Source: an uncultured Nitrososphaerota archaeon
Lineage (GTDB): Archaea > Thermoproteota > Nitrososphaeria > Nitrososphaerales > Gagatemarchaeaceae
NCBI GenBank assembly: GCA_963703285.1
Contig: OY969807.1
Location: forward strand, 32,001 to 96,000
Direction: 5' to 3'
DNA: 64,000 bases
The notes beneath the pieces were generated by a model. That model did no database searches. It saw only the letters and a list, made by a program, of their open reading frames with translations, and was not told where the DNA came from. Positions 1,107 to 61,895 of this stretch are shown in pieces. Every line of letters begins with the position of its first letter. Position 1 is the stretch's first letter. The position numbers and the translations under genes are program-made.

Positions 1107-1931
1107 TTGCCCCGCATCATCGACGCCCACGTTCACCTCTCCGGGCTACAGGATGACGAGCTCATCCCCTACGCCGCGCTCAACGGACTGAGCTACAACC
1201 TCGACGAACTGCTCGGGCTGATGAAGGCGAGCGGCGTCACGCGGGGGCTGCTTCTGAGCCCTCCACTCAAGGGAGGGGTGCCTCTCCCCAACGAACGGGT
1301 CCTCCAGATTTGCAGGTCGAGCGAAGGCGTGCTCTCCCCCGTCCTGACGGCCGAGCCGGCGCGGGAGAAGGTGGCGGATGCCGTGGCCCTCGCGAAGGAG
1401 CACCGCTCCGAGGCGAAGGGGTTCAAGATCAGGCTCGGATACCTGAAGGTCTCCGCCGACAATCCAGTGTACAACGACCTCTACGCCTACGCGGAGGCGG
1501 AGGACCTTCCGGTCATGTTCCACACCGGGGACACGGCTTCATCCACGGGGAGCCTGGAGCATTCTCATCCGCTCACCCTCGACCGTCTGGCGAACTCCCG
1601 GCCTGGCTTGAAGATCGTGGCATGCCACTTCGGAAACCCCTGGTTCGCCGACGTCGCCGAGCTGATCTACAAGCATCCCAACGTCTTCGCGGACATCTCG
1701 GGCCTTATTGTGGGCGGCGGCAAGTACCTGGAGGGTTACCTAGATTCGACGGCTGAACAGGTCCGGAGGGCCATCTACTACGCCGGCGGGGCGGAGAAGG
1801 TAATCTTTGGGACGGACTACCCTGTCTCCACCCTCTCGCTCGCCCTCGCCCTCATGGAGAAGCTCGGGATCGAGGACGAGGACTCGGAGAGGATTCTCTG
1901 GAAGAACGCAGCGAGGGTCTTCCACCTATGA
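1107..1931 (+). CDS. amidohydrolase family protein (Amidohydro_2-like)
   Basis: IIDAHVH, FHTG, CHFG, ADIS and IFGTDYP motifs; TTG start at 1107 about 30 nt after TTTATC. Confidence 0.9.
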   Translation: MPRIIDAHVHLSGLQDDELIPYAALNGLSYNLDELLGLMKASGVTRGLLLSPPLKGGVPLPNERVLQICRSSEGVLSPVLTAEPAREKVADAVALAKEHRSEAKGFKIRLGYLKVSADNPVYNDLYAYAEAEDLPVMFHTGDTASSTGSLEHSHPLTLDRLANSRPGLKIVACHFGNPWFADVAELIYKHPNVFADISGLIVGGGKYLEGYLDSTAEQVRRAIYYAGGAEKVIFGTDYPVSTLSLALALMEKLGIEDEDSERILWKNAARVFHL

Positions 1932-2455
1932 GCTCAGCGGCGGAGGGCTTCGAGGTGGTCGAGGCGGACCCGACGGAGAGGGCCTCGCTCGAGCCCATCC
2001 TCGAGGAGAGCTTCACGGGGATCTACCTGAGGCACGCCAAGAGGACGTTACACGACGTCGAGACCGTCCGGGTGGCCCGGGTCGGCGGGGCGGCCGTAGG
2101 CCTGGCGATGCTCAAGCTCCTCACGAAGGGGGCCGGGTACGTCTACTACATCGCGGTCCTCCCGTCGTCCCGCATGAAGGGTCTTGGCTCGAGGCTCCTC
2201 CTAGACTCGCTGGATTACTTCGCGCGCTCCGGCGCGACCGAGGTCTACGCCAGCGTCGGAGAGGACAACGTCGAGTCCAAGGCCCTCTTCTTTGGCAGGG
2301 GGTTCAGGAGGACGGACTTCTCGGAGGTCTCCAAGAAATACGGGACGATCAGGGCGCTCGCGATGTACAGGGGCATGTGGGTCGTTCCGGGCGAGATGCT
2401 CCTCGTCAAGGACACGGCGACCCTCCCCGATGGCGTCGCGCCCGGCGGCGCGTGA
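1928..2455 (+). CDS. GNAT family N-acetyltransferase
   Basis: IAVLPSSRMKGLGSRLL acetyl-CoA motif A and N..S..LF...GF motif; ATGA overlap with the upstream gene. Confidence 0.9.
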   Translation: MSSAAEGFEVVEADPTERASLEPILEESFTGIYLRHAKRTLHDVETVRVARVGGAAVGLAMLKLLTKGAGYVYYIAVLPSSRMKGLGSRLLLDSLDYFARSGATEVYASVGEDNVESKALFFGRGFRRTDFSEVSKKYGTIRALAMYRGMWVVPGEMLLVKDTATLPDGVAPGGA

Positions 2456-2461
2456 AGCTCC

Positions 2462-2938
2462 TCAGTCCTTGCGCGGTGCCTTCCTCGCAAGGTCCGCGAG
2501 GAGGGCGTTCCCCTCGATGAACTTGAGATTGAACCTGAAGGCGTCTATCCTCCAGCCGTCCTCCTCCCTCACAAGATGGAAGTCGTAGGTCCCGACGTAG
2601 GTGCACGTGTCCCTCCCCGTCGGGTTCGGGAAGTAGTGCGTGGCCGTGCCGTAGCAGAACGCGCTCGCCTCCTCACCCTCGACCTTCACGAGTGTATTGC
2701 CTATCTGGTGATGGACCGCGGCGAGCCCCCTCAGCCCCGACTCCCACTGGTCTGTTATCCTCTTCGAACTCACCCTGGAGGGCCTGTTCCCGTTCAGGGA
2801 GGACGTGTCGAAGAGAACCTTCGCTGCGAAACACTGGGTCACGCCCTGCCAGTTCCTCTCGTCGGTGTTGACAAACAACCTGGTCACCGTGTCCTCGACC
2901 TCCGCCCTCTCGGCCAGCGGTCCCCCCTTGGTCTCCAT
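2462..2938 (-). CDS. SnoaL-like / NTF2 family protein
   Basis: TDERNW, HHQIGN and GTYDFHLVREEDGWRI motifs; start taken at METKGG. Confidence 0.85.
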   Translation of the reverse strand: METKGGPLAERAEVEDTVTRLFVNTDERNWQGVTQCFAAKVLFDTSSLNGNRPSRVSSKRITDQWESGLRGLAAVHHQIGNTLVKVEGEEASAFCYGTATHYFPNPTGRDTCTYVGTYDFHLVREEDGWRIDAFRFNLKFIEGNALLADLARKAPRKD

Positions 2939-2993
2939 GGTTCCCGTCCGCGGAGGTACTCTCAATAAACCTTGGTCGCTGCGACCGGCTCCG

Positions 2994-3602
2994 CTAACGG
3001 GTAGGCCCGCTCGCCCGGAGGCGGCCAGAGTCGACTCCCGGGCTCGTCTCGTGGGACTTCCTGATGTCGTCCCTGAGCTTCTTGAAGTAGTAGAATCCTT
3101 CTCCCCCGAGTTTTGCATTGACCCCGTCCAGGAAGGGTTTCATCGCGTCCCAGGCCGTCTCGGTGAGGAACATGTCCTCGACCGTCTCGAGGGTCACTAT
3201 CTTCCGGTTCGCCAGGACGCCGAGCGACTCGAAGAGGGAGGCAATCTGGTAGAAGGAGACCTGCTCATCCTTGGGCAGCTTCTCGAACTCCTCGAACGAC
3301 TTCAGGTTGGAGTTCAAGACGGTCAACCAGGAAGTCTGGACCTCCCTCGTATTCGCGAACTCGTAGAGGCGCATTATCATGTCCATGTCGGCGATTTCGT
3401 TCGTCAGCTTCATCTGGTCGGAGCTCACCTTGGCCTGAATCCCGGCCGCCCTTGCCTGCTCGTTCGCGGCCTCGAGCATCCTCTTGTTGTCCCTCAGCTC
3501 GAACACCACGAAGAGGGCGCCGAGAATGATGGCCATCGAGCTGACGAAGGTGACCGCCGAGTCAGCCTCTCCGAAGCTGAAGCTGAGGACCTGGGCGATC
3601 AT
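2994..3602 (-). CDS. hypothetical protein with N-terminal TM helix (DUF4760-like)
   Basis: N-terminal hydrophobic helix, coiled segment and an FESLGVL motif. Confidence 0.7.
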   Translation of the reverse strand: MIAQVLSFSFGEADSAVTFVSSMAIILGALFVVFELRDNKRMLEAANEQARAAGIQAKVSSDQMKLTNEIADMDMIMRLYEFANTREVQTSWLTVLNSNLKSFEEFEKLPKDEQVSFYQIASLFESLGVLANRKIVTLETVEDMFLTETAWDAMKPFLDGVNAKLGGEGFYYFKKLRDDIRKSHETSPGVDSGRLRASGPTR

Positions 3603-16602: not shown

Positions 16603-17166
16603 ATGGGAGACCCTAGGAGACCACGAAGGACCTACTCGACGCCCAGGAGTCCCTGGCGGAGCGACCAGCTCGCCCAAGAGCTCTACCTTCTCGGGACCTA
16701 CGGCCTCAGGAACAAGCGCGAGCTCTGGAAGGCGTACACTCAGCTCAGCTCGATACGCAAGCAGGCGAGGCACCTGCTGGCAGCGTCCCCCGCGGTCCGG
16801 AGCCGCGACGAGGGGAAGCTCATTGACAGCCTCCTGAAGAAGGGCCTCCTCTCGACCGGGATGATCCTCGACGACGTGCTCAGCCTCAGCGTCGAGGACA
16901 TGCTTTCCAGGAGGCTGCAGTCGGTTATCTACAGGCGCGGGAGCGCGGTCTCGCCGTTGCAGGCGCGGCAGCTGATAGTCCACAGGCACGTGAAGATCGG
17001 AGAAAGAATAGTCACCGTGCCGGGCTACCATGTCACCGCGGAGGACGAGAAGAAGATCCAGCTCACGGGAGGCATCGGGACACCAAAGGTTCCCGAGCCC
17101 GCGAACGCCGCTCCTCAGGCGGGCCAGCAGGGTGCCGAACCGACGGAGCCGGCGCAGGGCCAGTGA
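16603..17166 (+). CDS. rps4: 30S ribosomal protein S4 (uS4)
   Basis: MGDPRR, YGLRNKRELW, RRLQS and QARQLIVHRH motifs. Confidence 0.97.
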   Translation: MGDPRRPRRTYSTPRSPWRSDQLAQELYLLGTYGLRNKRELWKAYTQLSSIRKQARHLLAASPAVRSRDEGKLIDSLLKKGLLSTGMILDDVLSLSVEDMLSRRLQSVIYRRGSAVSPLQARQLIVHRHVKIGERIVTVPGYHVTAEDEKKIQLTGGIGTPKVPEPANAAPQAGQQGAEPTEPAQGQ

Positions 17167-17172
17167 TAGCGC

Positions 17173-17241
17173 ATGTCTGAGGAAGAGTTTCTCAGAGACA
17201 AGTGGGCTACTTCTGCCGCGCTCCTAGTACCCGCTCGATAA
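17173..17241 (+). pseudogene. orphan N-terminal stub of rps11 (MSEEEFLRDKWA plus 10 read-through residues)
   Basis: ATG 6 nt after the rps4 stop; 8 of 11 residues identical to the N-terminus of rps11 at 18121-18153. Confidence 0.85.
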
Positions 17242-17926
17242 CTAATCTGCCGTAGCCGAAATCTATTGCTAGTTTGACTATCGGTACCCGGTCGGTGTTG
17301 TAACGGTAGCGAATCATTGATTGCTCTTCTTCGGTCACGCAAATCCTTGTCGCGGCGTGAGCTTTTTCGAGATTTAGGGCAACCTTCAGTCTCAGCCCCT
17401 CAGACCGTGTGTATGGAATCTTCGCTGTCTTTAGTATCCCCACCTTATTTCCAATTTCTACTTCGTGGTTCACACAGCGTACTAGTTCATCCCCCGTAGT
17501 TCTGTCTTCTAGATAATCAACTATGGCTTGCAGTTCCGCTCTTTTCTTATACACGTACGGCAGCATTTCTTTCGATGCGAGGAGTACTCCGTCGAGGTTG
17601 GGAATTCTAATCTGCCATGCCGATAACCGATGTTCGAATTTCTTTTTCGTGAGACCACCTGCCCGAATGCCCTTCAGACTTAGAAAATTTCCCACTGCGA
17701 TTAGCTGCCTGTCCCAATTGTCAGTGAATCCGATCTTGACATTGATTGTGAATTGGCCAAGTTTCTCTTCCACATTTCCGTCCCCATCGAAAAAACCGGC
17801 TACGACGGGCCAGCCTTTGTATCCATCATCCAATATCCCACAGGTTCTTGAATAAAGGTCCGGCGGTATCGGAAAATTCATTGGCGCGTTTTTCCGCGGC
17901 CTCCCAGGCCTCGGTTTGCTCTCCAT
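17207..17926 (-). CDS. single-motif LAGLIDADG homing endonuclease with N-terminal AT-hook-like and C-terminal HTH-like segments
   Basis: VVAGFFDGDG motif; PRPGRPRK at the N-terminus; PIVKLAIDFGYGRLVIERVL at the C-terminus; atypical codon usage. Confidence 0.85.
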   Translation of the reverse strand: MESKPRPGRPRKNAPMNFPIPPDLYSRTCGILDDGYKGWPVVAGFFDGDGNVEEKLGQFTINVKIGFTDNWDRQLIAVGNFLSLKGIRAGGLTKKKFEHRLSAWQIRIPNLDGVLLASKEMLPYVYKKRAELQAIVDYLEDRTTGDELVRCVNHEVEIGNKVGILKTAKIPYTRSEGLRLKVALNLEKAHAATRICVTEEEQSMIRYRYNTDRVPIVKLAIDFGYGRLVIERVLGARQK

Positions 17927-18153
17927 GATTGTGTAGGATGACCTTACTTATCATCACCACCCTCAGGAGTATCTCACACGACTAGGGAAAGCGATAACCA
18001 GGCAGTCTTCGGTCGCCGAAGCGGTCTTGAGTGTAGGTCATAGGCAGTTCGAGTATCGGGTGACTTGGGGAAGTTTCTTAAGGAGGTGGTAGACGGGCTC
18101 AACGATTCAAAGACTTGAGTTCTGACGAGGAGCTGTTGCGGGATCGTTGGGCT
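17209..18153. mobile_element. free-standing homing endonuclease cassette inserted in the rps11 5' end, carrying a new promoter and replacement rps11 N-terminus
   Basis: AT-richer segment bounded by TGGGCT at 17203-17208 and 18148-18153; removing it reconstitutes an in-operon rps11. Confidence 0.8.
18070..18083 (+). promoter_or_regulatory. putative BRE/TATA for the rebuilt rps11
   Basis: GAAG-TTTCTTAAG about 33-45 nt upstream of the TTG at 18115. Confidence 0.5.
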
Positions 18154-18522
18154 GTCGTGCACATCTACAGCTCCTACAACAACACCATAGTCCACATCAC
18201 CGACCTGACTGGTGCGGAGACCATCTCCTTCTCCTCGGGCGGGAGGCACGTGAAGGCCGACAGGTTCGAGGCCTCGCCCTACGCGGCGATGCGGTCGGCG
18301 TCCGCGGCGTCCGACGTCGCCAAGGGGAAGGGAATCACCGCCGTCCACATCAAGGTGAGAGCGGTTGGTGGCACGGGTCCGAGGACACCAGGTCCCGGCG
18401 CTCAGGCGGCGATCAGGGCCATCGCCCGCTCTGGCTTCAGGATAGGACGAATAGAGGACGCCACCCCCATACCTCACGACACGACCAGGAAGAAGGGTGG
18501 GCGCAGAGGAAGAAGGGCGTAA
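18115..18522 (+). CDS. rps11: 30S ribosomal protein S11 (uS11)
   Basis: [44 protein letters not shown] and GGRRGRR motifs. Confidence 0.97.
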
Positions 18523-22778: not shown

Positions 22779-23618
22779 ATGATTGCAAGGAGGCCTGTGG
22801 TCGCGGGTAGCTTCTACCCCGAGGATCCGGCGGAGCTGAGGTCTCTTATACGCAAGTCCTACAAGCACCCGCTCGGTCCGGGGTCGCTCCCACCGTCGAA
22901 GGTCGCCGCGGAGGGGGTCATGGCCTGCGTCTGCCCCCACGCCGGATACATCTACTCCGGCCCCGTCGCCGCCCACAGCTTCCTCTGGCTCTCGTCGCTT
23001 CGCCGGCCGGAGCTCGTCGTGATATTCGGTCCGAACCACTACGGCCTAGGGAGCGGCATCTCCACATTCCGGGAGGGAGCGTGGGCGACGCCGCTCGGCA
23101 ACCTCCAGGTCGACACCGAGGCGGCCGCGAGGATCGTCGAACTCACGGGGCTCGTCGACTACGACCCGGAGTCCCAGAGGAGGGAGCACTCGATAGAGGT
23201 CCAGCTGCCCTTCCTGCAGGAGATCTACACCTCCTTCAAGTTCCTCCCCATCTGCCTCTCGTTCCAGGACATCGAGACCGCCAGAGAGCTCGGCAGGGGC
23301 GTCTCCCGCCTCCTGAAGGGCCGCAACGCGATACTCATCGCCTCCTCCGACCTCACCCACTACGAGCCCGCCGCGGTCGCCAGGGAGAAGGACGCGGCCC
23401 TCCTCGAGACAGTGATGCGGCTCGACGTCGAAGCCTTCTACGGGGTCCTCGAGGCCCGGGGCGTGACGGCCTGCGGCTACGGGGCCATCGCAACCGTGAT
23501 GGAGGCGAGCCGTCTGCTCGGCTTCGGGCGCGGCGTACTGCAGAAATACGCAACCAGCGGGGAGACGACCGGAGACAACGATGCCGTCGTGGGCTATCCC
23601 TCCGTCGTATTCCGGTGA
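22779..23618 (+). CDS. MEMO1 family protein (AmmeMemoRadiSam protein B)
   Basis: RRPVVAGSFYP, PHAGYIYSG, EHSIEVQLPFL, SSDLTH and CG motifs. Confidence 0.93.
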   Translation: MIARRPVVAGSFYPEDPAELRSLIRKSYKHPLGPGSLPPSKVAAEGVMACVCPHAGYIYSGPVAAHSFLWLSSLRRPELVVIFGPNHYGLGSGISTFREGAWATPLGNLQVDTEAAARIVELTGLVDYDPESQRREHSIEVQLPFLQEIYTSFKFLPICLSFQDIETARELGRGVSRLLKGRNAILIASSDLTHYEPAAVAREKDAALLETVMRLDVEAFYGVLEARGVTACGYGAIATVMEASRLLGFGRGVLQKYATSGETTGDNDAVVGYPSVVFR

Positions 23619-23624
23619 CCCTGC

Positions 23625-24557
23625 TTGAAGGTCGTCGCCGAGGCTCCCGGAAAGGTCATCATAACCGGGGAACACTTCGTGGTGCACGGGGCGCTCGCCC
23701 TCGCGGCTGCCCTCGGCCAGAGGACAAGAGTGGAGGCCTCCCAGTCGGCCGGCCTCGTGGTGGAGACACCCGTCACCGGAGGCAGGCCCGCCGGTTCCGC
23801 GCCACTGCCCGTCGAGAAGGTGGTCAGGGAGATGTACAGGGAGAGGTCGATCGAGCCCCGGGTGAGGGTGGCGGTCAGCTCCGAGCTCCCCCCGGGGGCG
23901 GGTCTCGGTTCGTCAGCATCGACGATGGTCGCGGCCGTCGCCGCGGTCAGCAGGCTCGAGGGATGGAACATGGACCTCACCTCGATCATAGAGACGGCGA
24001 TGCTGGGGGAGAGGGCCATCCACGGCCAGCCCTCGGGGATCGACGTCGCGGTCTCCGCGATCGGCGGTGTCATCCAGTTCAGGGTCGGCGAAGAGCCAAG
24101 GAGGATCGACGTCCCGGCGCCCGTCAGGCTGCTTGTCGTCAACTCCGGGGAGAGGCGGTCGTCCAAGCGGCTCATCAGCAAGGTCTCCTCGATGAAGGGC
24201 GTCTACCCGCACCTCTTCTCGAAGCTCTGCGAGTCTGCCTCTCTCGTCACTCAGCTAGCCACCGAGCGCTTCCTAGACGGGAGGCTCGACGAGCTGGGCA
24301 GGATCATGACCTACAACCACGCGGTCCTCGCGACCGTCGGAGCCTCCAACTCGAGGCTCGACCGCCTCGTCGACCGCTGCATAGAGTTAGGGTGCTACGG
24401 GGCAAAGCTGACGGGAGCGGGAGGGGGCGGGAGCGTACTTGCGGTCGCGCCCCGAGCGATCGAGGAGAAGGTCGTGGCCCAGCTCGCGGGGCGGGGCTTC
24501 GCATGCTTTCCCACGGAGGTGCCGTCAGGAGGGGTCAAGGTGTGGACGACAGAATAG
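23625..24557 (+). CDS. mvk: mevalonate kinase
   Basis: PGKVIITGEHFVVHG, PPGAGLGSSA, HGQPSGID and KLTGAGGGG motifs. Confidence 0.95.
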   Translation: MKVVAEAPGKVIITGEHFVVHGALALAAALGQRTRVEASQSAGLVVETPVTGGRPAGSAPLPVEKVVREMYRERSIEPRVRVAVSSELPPGAGLGSSASTMVAAVAAVSRLEGWNMDLTSIIETAMLGERAIHGQPSGIDVAVSAIGGVIQFRVGEEPRRIDVPAPVRLLVVNSGERRSSKRLISKVSSMKGVYPHLFSKLCESASLVTQLATERFLDGRLDELGRIMTYNHAVLATVGASNSRLDRLVDRCIELGCYGAKLTGAGGGGSVLAVAPRAIEEKVVAQLAGRGFACFPTEVPSGGVKVWTTE

Positions 24558-25315
24558 TCGTGGTCAAGATCGGCGGCTCGCTCATGGGCAAGGAGCCCGA
24601 GTTTTCCTACAGGGCAGAGGCGGTCGCTCCCGTGGCGAGGGCGATAGCCCGCTCCGGCGTCAAGGTGGTCGTCGTCCACGGAGGCGGGGCGTTCGGCCAC
24701 CCCGTCGCGAAGAGATACGGCCTCTCTTCGAGCTCGACAAGCCGCTCATCGAGGGGCGTAAGCGAGACGCGGCGCGCCATGTTCGACCTCAACATCCGCG
24801 TCTGCGACTCGCTGATGGCCGAGGGGCTCCGCCCCTACGCCTTCTCGCCCTTCCCCCTACTCGCCTCCGCGGGGAGGAGGGGCGAGGCCTGGCTCCGCTG
24901 GCTGCTCTCCGAGTCGCTCACCCCGGTCACCTTCGGTGACGTCGTCCGCGACGGGGAGGGGTTCAGGGTACTTTCGGGAGACTCCATCGCCCGCCAGCTC
25001 TCGACGCTCCTGCGCGCGGAGCGCTGCGTCTTCGCGGTGGACGTCGAGGGCGTCATGGGGCCCCGCGGGCTCCTGAGCACCATCGACGCGAAGACCCTCG
25101 CCGAGCTGGAGTTCGCGGAGTCCCGCGACGCGACCGGAGGGATGCGGCAGAAGCTGAGGGAGGCGCTCGAGATCGCCAGCGCCGGGACCGAGGTCGCGAT
25201 CGTCTCCGGTCTCAGACCTGCAGAATTCTCCAAAGCCTTAAAGGGTCTCAGCTTTCACGGCACCACAGTCGAGGTTCCTTCCCGTGACCAAGAGCGAAGA
25301 CGCGAGCGTTCGTGA
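24542..25315 (+). CDS. ipk: isopentenyl phosphate kinase
   Basis: VKIGGS, VHGGGAFGH, SGD and DATGGMRQKL motifs; GTG start at 24542 inside the long 23081 ORF call. Confidence 0.92.
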   Translation: MDDRIVVVKIGGSLMGKEPEFSYRAEAVAPVARAIARSGVKVVVVHGGGAFGHPVAKRYGLSSSSTSRSSRGVSETRRAMFDLNIRVCDSLMAEGLRPYAFSPFPLLASAGRRGEAWLRWLLSESLTPVTFGDVVRDGEGFRVLSGDSIARQLSTLLRAERCVFAVDVEGVMGPRGLLSTIDAKTLAELEFAESRDATGGMRQKLREALEIASAGTEVAIVSGLRPAEFSKALKGLSFHGTTVEVPSRDQERRRERS

Positions 25316-32701: not shown

Positions 32702-33177
32702 CAATGTCCCGCCACCCAAAGACAGTCGCGTCCGGGGAGCGTCTGCTCGGTCGTCATATTCGTGCAGCCCGGTGGTCCTACTTGGCACGATTGCGTGCAA
32801 GGTACGGGCCGATTACCTTCAGGGGCCAATATCGAAGCGATGAAACTTCGTCTCCAGGGGGGCCTACCGCGGTCACAGCATTCCATCGCTACCCACCAAG
32901 TGCGGACGACCTTGGTCGAGTATATAATGCCGGCCTGCCATTCTCATCTTTGAGACGCACTTCTATCAGGTTTATTCTAACGGCGTTAATTTTCTCTCCA
33001 ACGGTGTTGACCCCAGGCTCACGTCAAGCCGGGCGGATGTCGTGGCCTTGGCCGGCGGCCCATCACTGGTTGGAATGGATTGCCGTCGCGAACTTCACTC
33101 CGGCTCGTTCTTTCACATCGTTTGCTTTATATGCAGATGCTGCGGGCCTCCGCCGAATTACTCGTCAGGCGATTGTC

Positions 33178-33354
33178 TTGTACACACCCAAGAAATGCTT
33201 CTTCTGCGGCAAGGACGTCCACCTCGGCGAGGGGATAATGCTCGTCTTGAACGACGGGTCGACCAAGAGCTACTGCTCCTCCAAGTGCAAGGTGAACGAC
33301 CGCAAGCTGAAGCGGGACCCACGCAAGTTCAAGTGGGCGAGGGAAAACAGGTAA
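33178..33354 (+). CDS. rpl24e: 50S ribosomal protein L24e
   Basis: CFFCG...G.GIM.V.NDG...YCSSKC...KRDPRKFKWA; TTG start at 33178. Confidence 0.95.
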   Translation: MYTPKKCFFCGKDVHLGEGIMLVLNDGSTKSYCSSKCKVNDRKLKRDPRKFKWARENR

Positions 33355-33767
33355 TGTCCCTCCCGCCCGTGGAGAGGACGCTCGTAGTCGTGAAGCCTGA
33401 CGCCGTGGGGCGGGGCCTCGTCGGCGAGATCATTGGGAGGTTCGAGAGGCGCGGCCTGAAGCCCGTAGAGATCAGGATGCAGACGGTGACCAAGGCCAAG
33501 GCCACTCAGTTCTACATCGTGCACAAGGACAAGCCGTTCTTCGGGGACCTCGTATCCTTCATCAGCAGCGGGCCCAGCGTCGGCGTCGTGCTCGAGGGTA
33601 GGGACGCGATCGCGCTCGTCCGCCGGGCGATAGGCTCCACCAAGAGCTGGGAGGCCGCCTCGGGGACTATAAGGGGAGACTACGCGACAGGGCTCCTGGA
33701 CAACGCCATCCACGCCTCCGACTCGAAGGAATCCTTCGACTGGGAGAGCAAGACCTACTTCTCGTAA
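33354..33767 (+). CDS. ndk: nucleoside-diphosphate kinase
   Basis: ERTLVVVKPDAV, GTIRGD and NAIHASDS motifs. Confidence 0.96.
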   Translation: MSLPPVERTLVVVKPDAVGRGLVGEIIGRFERRGLKPVEIRMQTVTKAKATQFYIVHKDKPFFGDLVSFISSGPSVGVVLEGRDAIALVRRAIGSTKSWEAASGTIRGDYATGLLDNAIHASDSKESFDWESKTYFS

Positions 33768-36767: not shown

Positions 36768-39700
36768 ATGGCCCAGACGATGTCCACGGTCCCGACGATG
36801 CGCATCCCCAAGCAGCCGGAGTGCAACATAGGCAGCGCAGGCCACGTGGACTCCGGGAAGTGTCAAAGAATCGACCAGTATGTCCTGCTCGAAGGCGTTC
36901 CTGTCACGGGGTCTCAGATTCTCCAGAAAGCGAAGTCGAGGGGTGTCTTGCTCGGGCGGATTGATGGTGGAGAGGTCTACGAGTTCGATGGAAGCAACGT
37001 AGTCTGCGTGGACGACAGATTCGAACCTGTGACCGCTGGCTCGAAGCTCTTCGTACAAGACTACAGCGGTCCCATGTATACCGTCATAGGTAAAAGTGGA
37101 AGATCAATCTGCATAACGCCAGAACACCCACTGCTCGTCAACAGAATGGGAAATCTCCAATGGATGAAAGCCAAGGATATACGCGAAGGCGATTACGCCG
37201 CGTTCCTTAGCCGCGTTCCCTTGGGGGAATCCATAACTCTTCCCGATGCCTTACCATCACTGAGAGAACGCTACGACGTGCTGACCTGGGAAGACTATAG
37301 TGAGTTGAGGTCAGCGACTTCGGACTTCACAGAGTTCGCGACCCTGCCCCAGAACAAGTTCGAAAAGATGAGGCTGCTGACCGGTCTCTCGGCATCTGGT
37401 CTCTCCAGGAAAGCAGGCATAAGTCGGGAAGCCTACTATAGAGTTCGTAGAGGAAAGACCATGCGCGCCCTCATAGGCGAGAAGGTGCGGCGGGCGTTTG
37501 CGAATTCAACTCTCGTTCCACTCTCTCCGCAGGAATTCCTCGTCGAGAGAAGCAGAGGGCACGGGAGGAGTGTGTCGAGGCTCGTGGATGTGGGGCAAGT
37601 CGATGGCGACATCGTAAAGTGGTTTGCGTTCGTCTGGGCCGAAGGTACGAGTCGGTCGTCCTTTGTTGGGGTCACGCAGACAGTTCAACGCAGGATGCTA
37701 GAGGAGTTCCTCAGGGTTACGAAGGAAAAGATGGGTCAGGAGATCGCGGGCTACGAAGACGGGAACTTCAGAATCCACAGCACAGCCTTCGTCGATTACC
37801 TTCGCGCCAGATTCGACTACGCTCCCGGCAACGAGTCCGTGTGTGGGATAGCCGATTGGGTCTGCAAGCTTCCTAGGAGTCTCAAGGCGACATTCCTCAG
37901 GTGGTTCCTCACCCTCGATGGCGAATTCGATGACAAAGGCGTCATATCCGTCACGCAGCTGAACGACAGAAATGTCGTCATAATCTCCTACCTCCTTCAC
38001 TCGTTTGGCATAGTCCCGCGCTTCTCCATCAAGAGAAGCCCGACCAAAGGCGGCATGAAGCTGTACCCGAGGCTGTCCGTTTCCGGTCGAGAGAACCTCA
38101 GGCTCTTCGCGGAGCTCATCGGGTTTGAGGATTCTCGCATACAGGGAAGATTGCTTGGGTACCTCTCCAAAATCAAGAAAGAAAGCAAAGAGACGGATCT
38201 TAGCATCCCCATCAACATCGAGTCTATTCGTCTGCTATTCAGGAGTTGCGGGATCCAGCGAGAGGCATTCGACCGAAACTCGACTATACCACAAATGAAG
38301 GGGTCTGCTTGGTACAAGGCCTACGAAGGCGCCGTAAGATCAGGCAGGATTTCAAGGAGAAAGCTCTCCCTCGTGGTGGCAGCCATAGATGAGCACCTGA
38401 AGTCGACCGAGAGGTCCTTGTCTGTGCTCAGGGCAGAAGGAAACTCTGCGCGGTATCACATGGCGCTCATGGGTGCCTCGATTGAATCTGTCGCGAGCGA
38501 ACTCGGAACTACACAAAAGGTGCTGAGACGCATTCTGCGGAGGGGGTCCGAGAGCGAGCTGGCACCCATCGTCAAGTATCTCAGGGCGGAGACGCGGGGG
38601 ATTCTTCATTACGCCGCTGGCTCCCTAGAGCAATTGCGTCTGCTTGCTTCTTCGCCTCTGGAATTCGACAGAATCGTCTCCGTGCAGACCGAGGAGTACA
38701 GCGGTCTAGTCTACGACCTCAGCGTTCCCGAGTACGCTAACTTCGTTGCTGGCAAGGGAGCGACGGTCTGCCACAACACATCAATTGTAGCGAGCATAAC
38801 CGGCGTGTGGGCGAGTGCTCACAGCGAGGAGCTGAAGAGGGGCATCACCATTAAGGTGGGGTACGCGGACGCGGCATTCTACAAATGCGCGCACACGCCC
38901 CCTCCAGAGGCGTTCTCGACCTCCCCTGTCTGTCCGGTATGCGGCCAGGAGACACAGCTGCTCAGGGCCGTCAGCTTTGTCGACGCGCCGGGCCACGAGA
39001 GCCTGATGACGAACATGCTAGCGGGGGCCGCGCTCATGGACGGCGCCTTCCTCGTGATAGCGGCGAACGAGCCCGTCCCGATGCCCCAGACAAGGGAGCA
39101 TATGCTCGCCCTCCAGATGCTCGGAATGAAGAAGATGGTTGTGGTACAGAACAAGATTGACAGGGTAGACGCCGAGGGGGCAAGGAAGAACTACGAGGCG
39201 ATCAAGAGTTTTCTCGCCAACACCATCGCGGCCGATGCCCCTGTGATCCCCGTCTCGGCTCAGCACGGCATCAACATCGACGCCCTGATACAGGCGTTCG
39301 AGGAGAACATCCCCACACCGGCAAGGGATCCGTCGGCGGTGTCGCAGATGTACGTGCTGAGGTCGTTCGACGTAAACAAGCCGGGATCGGAGATTCGCTC
39401 GCTCGTGGGCGGGGTGCTGGGCGGAAGTCTAGTCAGGGGAGAGCTGAAGGTGGGCGAGGAGATCGAGATATCTCCGGGGCTTCCGGACGAGAGGGGGAAG
39501 TACGCCCCCATCCTCACGAAGATAGCGAGCCTCGGGACCGGCGCTGGGATGGCCGATAAGGTCGGCCCCGGCGGTCTGATATCCCTCGGAACATATCTCG
39601 ACCCCGCGCTTACCAAGGGTGACCTGATGGTCGGGTCGCTCGTCGGCAGACCCGGGACGCTCCCTGCTCCCAAGACCCACTTCACGGTCGAGCTCCAGCT

Positions 39701-39938
39701 CTTCGAGCAGGCGGTGGGTTCGGCGGAGCTGATGAAGGTCGAGAAGGTGAGGATGGGCGAGTCCCTCAGGCTCAACATCGGCACGGCTGCGACCCTCGGC
39801 TCGGTGACCTCCGTGAGGGACACGGTGGCGGAGCTGGACCTGCGCAAGCCCGTCGTCGCAGAACCCGAGACGCGCGTCGCGATCAGCAGGAGGCTGGCGG
39901 ACCGTTGGCGGTTGATCGGCTCGGGCCTGATAAAGTAG
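36768..39938 (+). CDS. eif2g: translation initiation factor aIF2 gamma subunit, intein-containing precursor
   Basis: QPECNIG..GHVD.GK, HSEELKRGITIKVGYAD, DAPGHE, QNKID, RSFDVNKPG and WRLIGSG motifs. Confidence 0.96.
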   Translation: MAQTMSTVPTMRIPKQPECNIGSAGHVDSGKCQRIDQYVLLEGVPVTGSQILQKAKSRGVLLGRIDGGEVYEFDGSNVVCVDDRFEPVTAGSKLFVQDYSGPMYTVIGKSGRSICITPEHPLLVNRMGNLQWMKAKDIREGDYAAFLSRVPLGESITLPDALPSLRERYDVLTWEDYSELRSATSDFTEFATLPQNKFEKMRLLTGLSASGLSRKAGISREAYYRVRRGKTMRALIGEKVRRAFANSTLVPLSPQEFLVERSRGHGRSVSRLVDVGQVDGDIVKWFAFVWAEGTSRSSFVGVTQTVQRRMLEEFLRVTKEKMGQEIAGYEDGNFRIHSTAFVDYLRARFDYAPGNESVCGIADWVCKLPRSLKATFLRWFLTLDGEFDDKGVISVTQLNDRNVVIISYLLHSFGIVPRFSIKRSPTKGGMKLYPRLSVSGRENLRLFAELIGFEDSRIQGRLLGYLSKIKKESKETDLSIPINIESIRLLFRSCGIQREAFDRNSTIPQMKGSAWYKAYEGAVRSGRISRRKLSLVVAAIDEHLKSTERSLSVLRAEGNSARYHMALMGASIESVASELGTTQKVLRRILRRGSESELAPIVKYLRAETRGILHYAAGSLEQLRLLASSPLEFDRIVSVQTEEYSGLVYDLSVPEYANFVAGKGATVCHNTSIVASITGVWASAHSEELKRGITIKVGYADAAFYKCAHTPPPEAFSTSPVCPVCGQETQLLRAVSFVDAPGHESLMTNMLAGAALMDGAFLVIAANEPVPMPQTREHMLALQMLGMKKMVVVQNKIDRVDAEGARKNYEAIKSFLANTIAADAPVIPVSAQHGINIDALIQAFEENIPTPARDPSAVSQMYVLRSFDVNKPGSEIRSLVGGVLGGSLVRGELKVGEEIEISPGLPDERGKYAPILTKIASLGTGAGMADKVGPGGLISLGTYLDPALTKGDLMVGSLVGRPGTLPAPKTHFTVELQLFEQAVGSAELMKVEKVRMGESLRLNIGTAATLGSVTSVRDTVAELDLRKPVVAEPETRVAISRRLADRWRLIGSGLIK
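36861..38777 (+). mobile_element. intein (639 aa) with DOD/LAGLIDADG endonuclease and two HTH-like inserts
   Basis: Starts with Cys after GHVDSGK; block B ITPEHPLL; endonuclease motifs FVWAEG and FLTLDGE; block F/G VYDLSVPEYANFVA...VCHN followed by Thr+1. Confidence 0.95.
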
Positions 39939-40324
39939 GGCGGACCAGAAGGGTCCTCTTCGACACCAGCTTCCTCCTCTCTGTGATGGAACACCCGACT
40001 CCGTGGCAGGACGACATCCTGGGTGCGCTGGGCGGTTTCGAGGGCGTGGTCCTCCAGCCAGTCTACTCGGAGCTCAAGCGTCTCTCCGAGGGGAGTGCGA
40101 GGTCGTCGCGGTTCGCGCTGCTCGCCCTCGGGCTCGTCGACCGCGGGGCGATTAGGGTCGAGCCCTCCGGTCCGGGCGGGGCGGACGACGAGCTGGTATC
40201 CAGCGCCCTGGGGGACGGAGCCGCCGTGGCGACCCTGGACCGCGACCTCATTCGAATGCTGCTGGCTTCGCACGTCGACGTTGTGTCCCTCAGGCGCGGC
40301 AGGGTCGAGGTTCGCCGCAGCTGA
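39905..40324 (+). CDS. PIN-domain protein (Fcf1/Utp23-like); start uncertain
   Basis: VLFDTSFL, ADDELV and VATLDRDL motifs; conserved position after aIF2g. Confidence 0.85.
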   Translation: MAVDRLGPDKVGRTRRVLFDTSFLLSVMEHPTPWQDDILGALGGFEGVVLQPVYSELKRLSEGSARSSRFALLALGLVDRGAIRVEPSGPGGADDELVSSALGDGAAVATLDRDLIRMLLASHVDVVSLRRGRVEVRRS

Positions 40325-40382
40325 AATCGCCAACAATCTTATATTAGGGACGCCGAGGGTGGTCAGTTTCTCTGGTTTAGAC

Positions 40383-40964
40383 ATGTTTCAGCTTGTTGAG
40401 CTCGACGATGTGGTGCGCGTTCCACCAAACCGTTTCGGTTCATCGCTCGAAGCTGTGGCTCTGGAGCTGCTGAAGCAGAAGTACGAGAGCACGATCAACC
40501 CCGACTACGGGTATCTGGTCCTCGTTACCAACGTCAAGGTCGACAAGATAGGGAAGATCATCGCCGGCGACGGCGCGACGTACCACAAGGTCAAGTTCGA
40601 GGTCTTCGCCTTCTTCCCTCTGAAGCAGGAGATAATCGAGGGAGAGGTCGTCGAGATCACGGACTTCGGAGCCTTCGTCAGGATCGGCCCGACGGACGCC
40701 CTCCTTCACCTGAGCCAGATAATGGACGACTACCTGACGAGCGACGTGAAGTCGGGCGTGATCACGGCCTCGCAGTCCAAGAGGACGCTCAAGGTGGGGT
40801 CGAAGGTGAGGGTCAGGATAACGGCAGTCTCGCTGGGGCACGGGATATCGATGGGCAAGATCGGGGTCACATGCAGGCAGCCCTTCCTGGGAGCGCTCGA
40901 GTGGATCGACGACGAGGTCGCGAGGGCGACGAAGCAGGCCAAGGCCGAGGCCCGGGCGGCTTAG
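40383..40964 (+). CDS. rpoE1: DNA-directed RNA polymerase subunit E' (Rpo7)
   Basis: DVVRVPP, GDGATYH, FGAFVRIGPTDALLHLSQI and TCRQPFLG motifs. Confidence 0.96.
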   Translation: MFQLVELDDVVRVPPNRFGSSLEAVALELLKQKYESTINPDYGYLVLVTNVKVDKIGKIIAGDGATYHKVKFEVFAFFPLKQEIIEGEVVEITDFGAFVRIGPTDALLHLSQIMDDYLTSDVKSGVITASQSKRTLKVGSKVRVRITAVSLGHGISMGKIGVTCRQPFLGALEWIDDEVARATKQAKAEARAA

Positions 40965-58912: not shown

Positions 58913-59323
58913 GTGTTCGTAAGAGCCAAGAGGGTCGGGCGGAGGCGATACCTCTACCTGGTCGAAGGGAGAAGGGACAACGGAAAGGTCAGGCAGGTCA
59001 CGCTCTGCTACCTCGGCCCCCTGTCGGAATTGGCCTCTGGCGTGCCAGAGGCCCTCAGGAGAGGGATTGACGTCCGTCTCCGCGTCGACTGGCAGAGGGT
59101 GAACGACGAGATTGGTCAGATCCCTCTGACGTTCGAGGAACTCTCAGAGGCGAGGAGGGCACAGTTCGCCCTTTCCGCCAGGGCGAGGACCCAGCGAGGG
59201 CGTCCCACCCAGGGCGACTTGCCGAGAAAGGAGGGGGAACTCTCCGCGCTTTCGAAGCTGGCAGCATTGAGATTCGAAGAGCTCTTCGAGGAAACCGGAG
59301 CGCTCACCTTTCGGATGAGGTGA
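58913..59323 (+). CDS. hypothetical DNA-binding protein with IS1634-N-terminus-like beta domain (putative antitoxin)
   Basis: MFVRAKRVGRRRYLYLVEGRRDNGKVRQVTLCYLG; GTGA overlap with the next gene. Confidence 0.6.
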   Translation: MFVRAKRVGRRRYLYLVEGRRDNGKVRQVTLCYLGPLSELASGVPEALRRGIDVRLRVDWQRVNDEIGQIPLTFEELSEARRAQFALSARARTQRGRPTQGDLPRKEGELSALSKLAALRFEELFEETGALTFRMR

Positions 59324-59928
59324 GGAAGATGATTCCGAGCAGAAGAACCCCAGCCGGGCCACGCAAGGGGCCCCGGCGCACACCACCGCGAATCATCCTA
59401 GCGCAGCTCAGGAAGGAGCCGAACGAGCTGAAGAAAAAGATGCTCCTCCTCGGATTCATCTCTGATGAACTATCGAGAAAGGATGGTTTCCTCTTCCTCG
59501 TCGGGGGGCAGGCGGTCGAGACCTACACCGCCGGTCAGTTCACGACCGGAGATGTCGACATCACCACCACTGACCAGGAGGCGACGGAGAACTTGCTGAG
59601 CCGATTGGCCTTCAAGAGAGAGGGGATGGTCTGGCTGAACGAGAAACTGGCCATCGCAATCCACATCGTCGGCTCTTATCCAACGAGGACTGAGAAGGTT
59701 CGCACCCTGGAGGTCGGAGGGTACTTGGTCAGGATAGTTGGGATTGAGGAGTTGATAATAGACAGGCTGAAAGCAGCGAAGTTCTGGAAGAGCAGACGAG
59801 ACTCCGAGCAGGCCGTTGTCCTCTTCGACGGTTTCAGGGAGCGCATTGACCGTGAATATCTCAGGAAGAGAGCCAGAGAGGAGAAGGTCGATGACATCCT
59901 TCCCGAAGTTGGGCGGATGAACGGTTAG
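59320..59928 (+). CDS. AbiEii/DUF6036-like nucleotidyltransferase
   Basis: LVGGQAVETYT...TGDVDI motif and EELIIDRL. Confidence 0.75.
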   Translation: MRKMIPSRRTPAGPRKGPRRTPPRIILAQLRKEPNELKKKMLLLGFISDELSRKDGFLFLVGGQAVETYTAGQFTTGDVDITTTDQEATENLLSRLAFKREGMVWLNEKLAIAIHIVGSYPTRTEKVRTLEVGGYLVRIVGIEELIIDRLKAAKFWKSRRDSEQAVVLFDGFRERIDREYLRKRAREEKVDDILPEVGRMNG

Positions 59929-60071
59929 CAGGTAACTCGGGACAGAGCCTCGATGCGGTTATCTCGAGCACGATGTTTGGCCAGAAGTAGAGCAAGAGAC
60001 CTCAAAATCAATAAAGACTCTCACTGGGAGAAGCCGGAGTCGACGGCGATGCTTTGACCGGGCCCAAAGGG

Positions 60072-60152
60072 ATGAAGATTTTGTCGATCCTGTGGGCCCC
60101 ATTCGGGTTTCGCGTGTTGCTTAAATCTTCGTTCCACCTGTCAAACAGTTGA
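60072..60152 (+). pseudogene. orphan N-terminal stub of the downstream glycosyltransferase (MKILSILWAPFGFR plus read-through)
   Basis: Aligns ungapped with MKTIVLVWGPFGFR at 60887; its TGA overlaps the TTG start of the nuclease gene. Confidence 0.8.
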
Positions 60153-60929
60153 GAAGAGGATCGCACCATTCCGTCGAGGCCAAGCGGAAGGTGTCGGAGG
60201 CTAGAAGAGGAAATCATCCAAAGACAGAGTTCAAGAAGGGTAACACCCTGTGGGTAGGAAGGCATCACTCTGAGGAGTCGAGACAGAGGATTTCTCGGGC
60301 GCTCATCGGTAGGACAGAGTCCGTTGAAACTCGAGCCCGAAAATCTAGGGCACACATGGGAAAGATCCCTTGGAACAAGGGTCTGACAAAAGAGACGACG
60401 CCAAGCTTGGCAAGGATCGGGGAGAAGAAAAGATCGTGGTGGACCGATGATAGGAAGAAACAACTAGCTGAGCGTAACCACTGGTTCTTCAGAGAATGGT
60501 GGAGAAAACATCCCGAACACGCGGAAACAATGGCGAGGGTCGCCAGGCCAACAACAATCGAGATGCTCGCGAGAGAGTCTCTGACGAAGAGAGGGGTGAA
60601 GTTCTCAGTCTGCAAGAGGGTCGAAGAGATTTGTTTTCCCGATCTCTTCCTTCCTGATGAAAAAATCGCGATATTCTGCAACGGTTGTTACTGGCACGCT
60701 TGTCCGAAGCACTGTCCAAGCGTGCCAGACTGGCTTCGAAAGAAGATTAAGGACCGACAAATCTATGAAGAGCTCGGAAGACGTGGTTGGAAGGTGCTAG
60801 CCATCTGGGAACATGAGTTCAAGCTTAATCACGATGTAGCTGGAGAGAGACTTGAACAGATGCTCCATGACGCGAGAGGTGAGTGAATGAAAACCATAGT
60901 CTTGGTTTGGGGTCCCTTTCGGCTTTCGT
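60114..60929. mobile_element. free-standing nuclease cassette inserted in the glycosyltransferase 5' end, with replacement N-terminus
   Basis: AT-richer block between two copies of the W-x-P-F-G-F-R coding segment. Confidence 0.75.
60149..60886 (+). CDS. NUMOD3-repeat DNA-binding region fused to a Vsr/DUF559-like endonuclease
   Basis: HSVEAKRKVS, HHSEESRQRIS, ESVETRARKS, PWNKG; then PTTIE, FPD, FCNGCYWH and GWKVLAIWE. Confidence 0.85.
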   Translation: MRRGSHHSVEAKRKVSEARRGNHPKTEFKKGNTLWVGRHHSEESRQRISRALIGRTESVETRARKSRAHMGKIPWNKGLTKETTPSLARIGEKKRSWWTDDRKKQLAERNHWFFREWWRKHPEHAETMARVARPTTIEMLARESLTKRGVKFSVCKRVEEICFPDLFLPDEKIAIFCNGCYWHACPKHCPSVPDWLRKKIKDRQIYEELGRRGWKVLAIWEHEFKLNHDVAGERLEQMLHDARGE

Positions 60930-61895
60930 GCTGATGAACTCGCGGAATCCGTGGGTGCCGAGAGGGTCAGCATCACCGTCCTCTACGGCCCGCGATACTT
61001 CGCACCCATCCGCTACGTGGCGCTCTTCTTCAAGACCCTTCTGATACTCTCCCAGCGGAAGCCGGATGTCGTCTACGCCCAGAACCCTCCGGTGTTCTGC
61101 CCCCTCACCTGCATGCTCTACTGCCGTGCCACCGGCAAGAAGCTGGTCATAGACCACCACTCGGTTTGGAAGGTCAAGACCCTCGGCCGGGGGCCACTAT
61201 CCAGAATCATAGGGGTCCTTGAGGGGGTCGTCTCCCGCTCGGCCGCTGGGAACACCGCTCCCCACGTCTTCTGGGCCGAGATGCTCAGGTCGATGGGCGC
61301 TAGGAACGTTCTGGTGGTGCACGACTATGTCGAGAGGAACACCAACGCGCGCGACGAAAAGCTGCGGCTCTCCTTCACGGACAGGCCCTTGGTGGCGGTC
61401 TGCTCCCACGGCGGGCATCCCCTCGAGCGTATCGAGGCCGAGGCGTCCGGCGTCGGTCAGGTCGGCTCCGTCGAGCTGCTGATCACCGGCCCGAAAGAGA
61501 AGCTCGAGCGCAGGCTCTCAGCGGTCGCGCTCCCGGAGAACGTCCGGTACCTGGGCTTCCTCCCGAGGCAGACCTACGAGTCGCTCAAGGCCTCCGCCGA
61601 CATGGCGATCAACGTGACCGACGAGCCCTTCACCCTCTCTCACGTGCTCCTGGAGTATGCGGCCAGCTCCCTCCCGGTGATATCCTCCAGGGAGGAAGTG
61701 GTGCGGGGGTTCTTCGGGGACGCCCTGCTGTACACCGACACCACGGACTCCGCCGAGGTCGCGGAGAAGGTGAGGATGATGCTCGACCCGGCCGTCCGTG
61801 ACGAGTACAGGGAGAGGGTGACGAGGTGGTACGGCGAGCTCTCCCTCTCGCACCAGGCCGAGGTGCGGTCGCTCAGGTCGCTGCTGGGCCGATAA
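60887..61895 (+). CDS. glycosyltransferase (GT-B, family 4-like); +1 frameshift near 60917
   Basis: KPDVVYAQNPP, IDHH, YLGFLP and EYAASSLPVISS motifs; ATG 60887 joins the 60951 ORF after skipping one base. Confidence 0.85.

Follow-up and report, generated by a model that had tools for sequence, protein, structure and literature searches.

Introduction

The closest described counterpart of the locus reported here is the MobA element of bacteriophage T4, which comprises the mobA homing nuclease gene, a homologous replacement region and the 50-nt bypass of gene 60 (Bonocora et al. 2011, as described in PMC5009743; bioRxiv 10.1101/2022.08.31.505936). In these accounts polymorphisms in the replacement region failed to stop nicking by MobA, the bypass insert of gene 60 did stop it, and T4-type phages without the nuclease still keep the bypass. 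A cassette of related design is described here from an uncultured soil thaumarchaeon (family Gagatemarchaeaceae, assembly GCA_963703285.1), at positions 60072 to 61895 on the + strand of a 64-kb (64,000-nt) stretch of contig OY969807.1, referred to throughout as the window (W). A gene for a NUMOD3 and Vsr-like nuclease stands at the 5' end of a GT4 glycosyltransferase gene, the first 15 codons of which are displaced as a stub and replaced by a recoded copy with one extra base. The reading favored here, a homing cassette combined with +1 recoding, is on balance probable as a whole; its parts carry different weights and are graded separately below.

Three other bodies of work bear on the locus. 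The EDxHD family of Vsr-like nucleases was defined with N-terminal NUMOD repeats and includes free-standing members and phage Hef; the same source places Vsr-like nucleases also in introns and split inteins, equates Asp196, Asn208, His213 and Asp222 of I-Bth0305I with Asp51, His64, His69 and Asp97 of Vsr, and reports that few single substitutions lower I-Bth0305I cleavage (PMC3239194). In fungal mitochondria, free-standing homing nuclease genes are described beside C-terminal duplications of atp6 and cob (PMC6279837). Sites of the form UUU_Ynn are described as unusually prone to +1 shifting, with stimulatory elements not obligatory, and influenza A uses UCC_UUU_CGU (PMC5009743). For Archaea, a 2021 review gives the programmed −1 frameshift of Saccharolobus solfataricus fucA1, on A_AAA_AAT, as the single demonstrated frameshift, +1 shifting being merely suggested for a haloarchaeal virus (PMC8211752).

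Like T4 MobA, the archaeal cassette has a free-standing homing-type nuclease inside a conserved open reading frame (ORF) with no intron or intein, brings a diverged host copy around its presumed target together with an insertion that would need ribosomal recoding, and carries a candidate recoding signal that outlasts decay or loss of the nuclease. It differs in its host (an archaeal chromosome rather than a phage), in its nuclease (Vsr-like/EDxHD rather than HNH), in the fate of the host gene (restarted with its first 15 codons replaced, whereas the T4 gene is split into two subunits with added tails) and in the size of the event (a 1-nt +1 shift against a 50-nt bypass). Protection from cleavage was demonstrated for T4 and is, for the archaeal cassette, inferred alone. 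With the EDxHD family (I-Bth0305I, 3R3P, phage Hef and metagenomic 'fractured gene' ORFs) the nuclease shares N-terminal NUMOD repeats, a C-terminal Vsr-like domain, the E, D, H, D residues, Asn at the position of Vsr His64 and the existence of free-standing members. Unlike I-Bth0305I it has NUMOD3 in place of NUMOD2, is archaeal, has a glycosyltransferase target and keeps a Cys/His cluster (C180, H183, C185, H188) aligned to the Vsr zinc-site region, which I-Bth0305I is without.

The candidate frameshift site follows the pattern NCC_UUU_CGN of influenza A PA-X (UCC_UUU_CGU), bacterial UUU_Ynn sites and Yersinia yopN-tyeA, with re-pairing of tRNA-Phe from UUU to UUC and an Arg CGN codon in the A-site (PMC5009743). 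Unlike the known UUU_Y sites, the shifted product would here be the sole useful one, a case of corrective frameshifting. In this genome CGG is no rare codon, a second slip would be possible on CCC_U, and activity of the site is predicted from its sequence. As in the fungal mitochondrial cases, the nuclease gene moves together with a copy of the neighboring host-gene end, and the original end persists as a remnant; the fungal cases differ in that the 3' end is duplicated, in an organelle, by LAGLIDADG or GIY-YIG nucleases and with no recoding. The likeness to fucA1 is that an archaeal cellular gene lies in two frames and would be expressed via recoding; in fucA1 the shift is −1 and there is no mobile element.

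Cassette architecture

The locus had first been annotated, from the letters of the window, as a glycosyltransferase split by a NUMOD3-Vsr nuclease with a duplicated N-terminus. All coordinates given by that initial annotation were recovered, and Pfam domains and the native N-termini of relatives agreed with a free-standing Vsr-like nuclease cassette in a transferase with a duplicated, recoded N-terminus. The gene is not split; it is restarted, its first 15 codons having been displaced and replaced. The displaced native first 14 codons (MKILSILWAPFGFR) occupy 60072-60113 and match the N-termini of uninterrupted, or empty, alleles. The stub ORF starts at ATG 60072, continues through MKILSILWAPFGFR and then VLLKSSFHLSNS (12 unrelated codons) and ends at TGA 60150-60152; 60114-60152 holds the left cassette junction along with the part of this ORF that is out of context, homology to empty alleles ending past codon 14-15. 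The nuclease gene (60149-60886, 245 aa) starts at TTG 60149-60151, which overlaps the stub TGA. Its stop codon, TGA 60884-60886, is adjoined by ATG 60887 with zero spacer.

From this ATG the replacement 5' end runs to 60932 and holds the recoded transferase codons 1-15 with one extra base. MKTIVLVWGPF is read in the ATG frame and GFRADELAE... one base on, the surplus base lying within CCC_TTT_C at 60914-60920. The proposed +1 frameshift site is CCC_TTT_CGG at 60914-60922, where C 60920 or an equivalent base would be skipped. The transferase body follows in the +1 frame at 60921-61895 (324 codons and a stop; a 335-aa product is expected with the leader), and GT4/GT1 glycosyltransferase domains were assigned to this downstream frame by Pfam.

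The stub and the replacement start share 8 of 14 residues, a recount that gave the figure first reported, and their DNA is, as had been noted, divergent: a repeat search did not detect the pair as a repeat. The motif W.[PA][FYWL]G.[RK] was found once, at the stub, in a six-frame translation of the window, and the stub agrees with the true N-termini of uninterrupted orthologues (...KILSLVWGPFGFRADELAE...); because of this uniqueness and agreement the match is not due to chance. Nuclease and transferase are each single-copy in the 2.25-Mb genome, and no transferase paralogue was found in that genome at E<=0.001. The possibility raised at the outset, that the stub comes from an unrelated decayed paralogue, therefore fails, the stub being orthologous to native 5' ends. 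The G+C content of the nuclease gene is 0.48-0.53 and that of the transferase 0.60-0.70.

Occupied, empty and scar alleles

Alleles were compared across the genus (23 genomes, designated by G numbers; L numbers designate relatives' loci and metagenome contigs). The transferase was found in 21 genomes and its 5' end was readable in 20, one allele being cut by a contig end; the two genomes without a transferase match are 76% and 54% complete. Empty alleles, which the initial annotation had suggested looking for, make up 13 of the 20 readable alleles and start ...K(I/T)L..(L/V)W.PFGFRADELAE. Four alleles are occupied (G000, G001, G019, G020) and three are scars (G013, G003, G021), in which the nuclease of ~280 codons is nearly gone (last 72 codons with an internal stop in G021, ~15 codons in G003, ~5 codons in G013) and the replacement start codon, 11-codon leader, CCC_TTT_C site and transferase body are retained. 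In genomes with empty alleles, any nuclease match was on another contig and covered the Vsr domain alone. Linkage of the nuclease to this site, the lack of which would have told against the original proposal, was found in three other genus genomes with one further remnant, in 10 of the 11 metagenome alleles and in one groundwater metagenome-assembled genome (MAG; L057). The nuclease is directly 5' of the transferase in the four occupied genomes, G000, G001 (81% identical to that of the window), G019 (two copies in tandem) and G020 (56%), and nuclease sequence stands in this position in the 10 metagenome alleles.

The point of insertion is constant. Left junctions fall after codon 14-15 in 8 cassettes, and the stubs in G001, G020, L049, L051 and L055 all break off there. 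In G001 the stub and the DNA 5' of it align collinearly with the empty allele of the sister genome G010, the two alleles being joined with a support of 98 on the transferase tree. On this tree of transferase bodies the occupied alleles lie mixed among the empty ones: the best tree requires 8 changes of state, a minimum of 3 being imposed by branches with good support, and shuffling the state labels gives no greater scatter than is observed. The replacement leader (KTL...) is closer to the native starts of the other transferase clade than to the local stub (KIL...).

A second cassette type was found in G019 and G020. Its nucleases are 58-60% identical to that of the window, it ends TAG|ATG, and its replacement start is in frame and reads WGPFGDR, a Phe-to-Asp recoding. 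G020 carries it in a native allele. In G019 (L034, reverse strand, ~1399-3115) a decayed first-type nuclease is followed by the first-type replacement start, now itself a stub, an intact second-type nuclease and a WGPFGDR transferase; the relic first-type site reads CCC TTT T GGG. The two second-type insertions are separate events into different substrates at the same nucleotide position. This pattern of presence, decay and absence at one site is that of a homing endonuclease gene as far as sequence comparison can tell, and the element is very probably a site-specific mobile nuclease cassette with a replacement 5' end, for which homing would be the mode of spread.

Two further alleles are recorded here. 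The nuclease-free allele L020 (G008) reads WSPFGDR and groups near the second-type carriers on the tree; it may be a second-type scar or a naturally resistant variant. The empty-site transferase L019 (G009) is frameshifted and matches in two pieces (residues 6-82 and 75-329), which may reflect an assembly error or gene decay.

The extra base and the +1 frame

In the initial annotation the extra base was something to be corrected before the two N-termini were aligned. It proved to be a conserved feature: CCC_TTT_C|GG is invariant in 17/17 alleles of this cassette type (14 distinct), drawn from 5 genus genomes, 11 metagenome alleles and the groundwater MAG. The five genus genomes all read TGG GGN CCC TTT C GGN. 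Metagenome contigs were searched with a pattern that left the Pro wobble, the Phe wobble and the inserted base free; of 12 matches, 11 belonged to this transferase, each with CCC TTT C, and the remaining one (L052) was unrelated. The groundwater MAG L057 (nuclease 49% identical) lay beyond the reach of this pattern because its motif reads GYR, and it too carries CCC TTT C. Of the 13 empty alleles, 4 use CCC for Pro, 4 use TTT for Phe and a single one combines the two; across the genome, 10% of Phe codons are TTT. Synonymous divergence is saturated among the alleles that keep the site.

Reading frames on both sides of the site are conserved. The leader MKTIVLVWGPF is kept in frame 0 in the 14 distinct alleles, and over its codons 2-7, left free in the search pattern, the ratio of nonsynonymous to synonymous polymorphism (pN/pS) is 0.36 when read in frame 0 (the ATG/GTG frame), the other two frames giving 0.84 and 2.70. 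Over the 60 codons past the site, variable columns number 22/12/52 at codon positions 1/2/3 of frame +1. Upstream of the site the +1 frame contains stops and no ATG, GTG or TTG, and GTG 60951, the start chosen by the ORF finder, is GTC, ATC or GTA in other alleles. Behind the site, 11 of 12 distinct transferase bodies are open over their full length (324-331 codons), those of the three scars included. Public DNA, compared in the form of four low-depth contig sets of one soil study, yielded a separately assembled contig (X3 record 7, depth 2.5) that spans 60863-61013 with 0 differences and 0 gaps, the extra base being present. Error and simple pseudogenization are poor explanations, since both frames are conserved, the bodies are open, the scars keep the site and the separate contig agrees. 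The extra base is likely to have been selected and to require +1 recoding, with frameshifting predicted from these patterns of conservation. Reading of a four-letter code word was rejected, as CCCT and TTTC recur in frame downstream and the product would be garbled.

The nuclease

Two stretches of NUMOD3 (E 1.7e-10) and a Vsr domain (E 2.2e-8) were identified in the 245-aa ORF with Pfam. A phmmer search against the PDB matched E. coli Vsr (1cw0, E 1.5e-7), to which the sequence is nearer than to 3R3P. The AlphaFold model has a mean predicted local distance difference test score (pLDDT) of 55, with ~54-84 per 10-residue block in the catalytic domain and <50 for residues 1-95; its top three Foldseek matches in the PDB were 1cw0 (4.6e-5), 1vsr (2.6e-4) and 3r3p_B (7.6e-4; template modelling score 0.77 on the target). 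Catalytic positions were assigned through the alignment with Vsr and the residue equivalences of PMC3239194. E138, H183 and D202 are invariant in 7/7 cassette nucleases and D165 is present in 6/7. The equivalent of Vsr His64, position 178, is Asn in five of the seven (N178 in the window) and His in two. By architecture, residues and modelled fold the nuclease is of EDxHD type, with its cleavage specificity at the level of prediction. That a Vsr-like homing nuclease is free-standing, a point raised in the initial annotation, is not new, such enzymes being already described in that paper (PMC3239194).

The ratio of nonsynonymous to synonymous substitution rates (dN/dS) of the nuclease is 0.10-0.23 in the four pairs with computable dS. 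Decayed copies are many: frameshifts were found in L051, L053 and the first G019 copy, a remnant in L044 and a stop-containing remnant in G021. Purifying selection on the nuclease beside many decayed copies is, on these comparisons, the signature of a classic homing cycle. In L055 the nuclease ORF is open and the catalytic Asp (D165) is replaced by Gly (PGL for PDL).

The close nuclease family is small (~19 clusters at >=48% identity) and was found solely beside this transferase; some members bear the source label 'DNA mismatch endonuclease Vsr'. Viral contigs yielded no close relative: 598 candidate stretches contained 84 relatives, and among the best 80 of these the highest identity was 30%. 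A viral vector for the cassette was rejected, the nuclease relatives on viral contigs being distant ones (at most 30% identity among the best 80 of 84).

Cassette ends and expression signals

At the left end, ...TT(Y) CGN (GCN) is followed by CTTAAAT(C), or by CTTTTTATT in the G001 type, and a cassette-specific ...CTTAAATC... was found at the junction in W, G020, the second G019 copy, L045, L049 and L051. The first base of the CTTAAAT/CTTTTTATT box (60120-60126 in the window) is exactly 29 nt from the nuclease start in 8/8 cassettes with a complete 5' end (two of the eight from the same species). The start codon is TTG in five of these and ATG in three, and no Shine-Dalgarno-like sequence was found ahead of it. 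The fixed spacing suggests that the box is an archaeal TATA box and that the nuclease has its own promoter, from which a leaderless mRNA would be made. At the right end, a conserved G(G/A)GGTGA precedes a nuclease stop codon that abuts, overlaps or lies 4 nt before the transferase start in 9/9 complete cassettes.

The cassette had been described initially as wired into the host transcription unit. Of its two junctions the right-hand one is conserved. The coupling proposed at the stub is not: the stub has an in-frame TGA in L049, has lost its start codon in G001, is barely recognizable in L045 and is unrecognizable or absent in G021, G003 and G013. As stubs are not maintained, the overlap of stub and nuclease in the window is probably incidental, and the stub itself is probably a decaying remnant.

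In all occupied first-type alleles the nuclease gene, the diverged replacement region and the recoding insertion are contiguous. No Rfam family was found at E<=1 in 59800-61200, and no terminal inverted or long direct repeats were found at the cassette; an intron or a transposon was rejected on these grounds.

Proposed mechanism

The target would be codons 15/16 of a GT4 glycosyltransferase in a surface-glycan cluster of soil Thaumarchaeota, within the most conserved N-terminal motif of the enzyme. The cassette would extend over ~60114-60932 and comprise the TATA-like box, the nuclease gene, a Shine-Dalgarno-like GGTGA with the stop-start junction and the recoded codons 1-15. Cutting by the nuclease would take place in empty alleles close to ...FGFRA|DELAE..., and the cassette would be copied during repair templated by an occupied allele. 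The native first 14-15 codons would be stranded as a dead stub and the transferase re-expressed from the cassette-borne start. Unlike an intron or intein, such a cassette would recreate the complete target beside the nuclease gene. Because the whole target is regenerated in a conserved motif, the replacement copy would have to become uncuttable and yet still encode that motif.

The first cassette type may have solved this with the 1-nt insertion CCC_UUU_C|GGN, corrected on the ribosome by a +1 shift in which tRNA-Phe slips from UUU to UUC and/or tRNA-Pro from CCC to CCU, the product reading WGPF-GFR either way. The second type may have done so with an in-frame triple substitution of one codon, Phe to Asp (WGPFGDR). 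If, as for I-Bth0305I, few single substitutions lower cutting, then an indel ~12 nt off or a triple substitution would be among the escapes available. Scars would keep the extra base because a reverted, in-frame allele would be a target again. That the extra base protects the cassette from its own nuclease is suggested by this design logic and by the T4 precedent, and is put forward tentatively.

Weighing of alternative explanations

A number of observations tell against this account or parts of it. The nuclease of the window is without 33 residues present in 6 relatives and may be weakened or impaired. Divergence and dS of the nuclease equal or exceed those of the transferase. Very recent transfer among the sampled genomes is therefore not indicated, and part of the occupancy pattern could be old insertion followed by losses. 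The dN/dS of the transferase body (0.11-0.34 among these alleles) is weak evidence alone because divergence may predate insertion, when the alleles were empty, and the L050 transferase has a second frameshift, after ...SHGGHP. A TTG start is unusual on a leaderless mRNA. Among the elements tested, no stimulus was found near the site: CGG stands at 12.5 per 1000 codons (16% of Arg), a tRNA-Arg(CCG) was predicted with aragorn (in an incomplete survey, without tRNA-Phe or tRNA-Gly), and RNAalifold on 13 alleles gave no covarying structure 3' of the site (−12.8 kcal/mol, 0/22 pairs compensatory). A 'hungry' A-site codon was rejected as CGG is not rare, the tRNA survey itself settling little. The extra base lies ~12 nt from the insertion point and the stretch from TTCGG to that point is unchanged, for which reason protection is plausible but not evident from the sequence. 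A second-type cassette entered a first-type allele in G019, so the extra base does not give protection against every relative.

The last two points would also be expected if recoding were real and the extra base had nothing to do with immunity, being a compensated indel that hitch-hiked or a throttle on transferase expression. Homing elements are described as able to bring linked, mildly harmful changes, and UUU_C as intrinsically shift-prone. This alternative is nevertheless rather unlikely, given that the site is invariant in all 17 alleles, scars included, over saturated synonymous divergence, although a one-base deletion in the C3T3 run would be an easy repair of the frame. This short stretch is changed in the second cassette type as well, as expected if it must differ from the target, and T4 MobA/gene 60 is a direct precedent for the protective role. 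In the wiring first proposed, the host transferase promoter would drive the nuclease, with translation reinitiating after termination where the stub stop (TGA 60150-60152) and TTG 60149 overlap. The stub stops of G020 and G001 also fall within a few nt of the nuclease start, and read-through from the native promoter is likely anyway; against this stand the decay of the stub ORF (internal TGA in L049, no start in G001, degenerate in L045, none in the scars), the TATA-like box at its fixed distance and the missing Shine-Dalgarno-like sequence, and expression by this route is unlikely. Still less probable is a single ancient insertion, inherited vertically with a domesticated or tolerated nuclease and lost several times, that is not or no longer mobile. 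It would account for a nuclease dS not below that of the transferase, for a small close family seen only beside this transferase and for viral contigs with no relative closer than 30% identity (in the best 80 of 84). It would, however, need many precise losses of stub, nuclease, replacement start and extra base together, each leaving a 5' end that looks native, against a tree with 8 changes, at least 3 forced; and it does not fit the two independent second-type insertions at one nucleotide position in G019 and G020, the leader (KTL...) that resembles native starts of the other transferase clade where the local stub has KIL..., or the purifying selection on the nuclease next to decayed copies.

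That the extra base simply inactivates the gene, leaving the transferase dead or N-terminally truncated from a downstream start, is improbable. The further frameshift in L050 and the automatic ORF call at GTG 60951 could be read in this way, but 11 of 12 distinct bodies are intact, those of the scars from which ~280 nuclease codons have gone included, conservation is frame-specific before and after the site, no downstream start is conserved (GTG 60951 is GTC, ATC or GTA elsewhere), and the stubs, true remnants of the same codons, do decay. Correction at the RNA level, with the base removed by polymerase slippage or editing, is very improbable, as runs of three C and three T are far below known slippage tract lengths. 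The site resembles instead the ribosomal UUU_Y +1 sites (PMC5009743). Homopolymer errors are common in assemblies, and Vsr-like nucleases are known from introns and split inteins (PMC3239194); assembly error, a self-splicing intron and an intein were all rejected, with next to no weight left to them, as 17 independent assemblies and the separate public contig agree, no Rfam match was found at E<=1, Pfam showed no intein domain, and stop codons and a separate start flank the nuclease.

Other features of the window

The neighbors of the locus are surface-polysaccharide genes (Polysacc_synt, ABC-2 transporter, NTP_transferase). Between nadE and the stub, at 58913-59928 (+), are two overlapping ORFs of 136 aa and 202 aa (G+C 0.54-0.57), the 202-aa ORF having a weak, sub-threshold match to DUF6036 nucleotidyltransferase. 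This stretch may be a separate small insertion, since the nadE shadow is far nearer to the stub in G001.

Two further elements of nuclease type were seen. A 239-aa ORF at 17207-17926 (−), on the opposite strand between rps4 (16603-17166) and rps11 (18115-18522), has a LAGLIDADG-like motif (...GFFDGDG...) read from the translation, and no Pfam family was assigned to it at E<=1e-5; it is presumably the 'rps11 element' to which the initial annotation compared the nuclease. The aIF2-gamma gene (GTP_EFTU, eIF2_C) at 36768-39935 (+) contains an intein with a LAGLIDADG_3 domain (Intein_splicing E 4e-18), the third selfish nuclease element of the window. Long N-terminal stretches precede the Pfam domain in three ORFs on the + strand, 33042-33764, 40023-40961 and 23081-25312, where NDK begins at residue 111, Rpb7 at 129 and AA_kinase at 492, respectively. 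These may be mis-called starts, fusions or further insertions.

Significance

Free-standing Vsr-like homing nucleases, fungal gene-end duplications, UUU_C sites and one recoding-protected cassette (T4) are already known. What is new is their combination on an archaeal chromosome, the restart of the host gene from a cassette-borne start and a conserved, putative +1 shift. No paper linking Thaumarchaeota, a homing endonuclease and a frameshift was found in the literature search, and the words endonuclease, frameshift and glycosyltransferase do not occur in the main text of the genome paper on the Gagatemarchaeaceae, though its supplements could list these genes.

It is possible, and suggested here with reserve, that selfish cassettes which regenerate their target repeatedly invent recoding for self-immunity. 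With T4 gene 60 as the first natural case, the locus would be the second, independent of it, with another nuclease family and in Archaea. It would likewise provide the first example of programmed +1 frameshifting in a cellular gene of Archaea, at a minimal CCC_UUU_CGG near-identical to the influenza PA-X site. The oddity of T4 gene 60 would then become a principle, by which a homing cassette without intron or intein is made both harmless and self-immune through a replacement end and recoding. The locus sets two traps for annotation: the nuclease is named 'DNA mismatch endonuclease Vsr', and the transferase would pass for a truncated gene or a pseudogene. In a lineage that has no genetics, the nuclease is a candidate site-specific tool; the site is a short, phylogenetically validated candidate +1 shift site for Archaea. 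If the proposed cycle is true, gene-drive-like elements would be acting on chromosomal surface-glycan genes of uncultured soil Thaumarchaeota.

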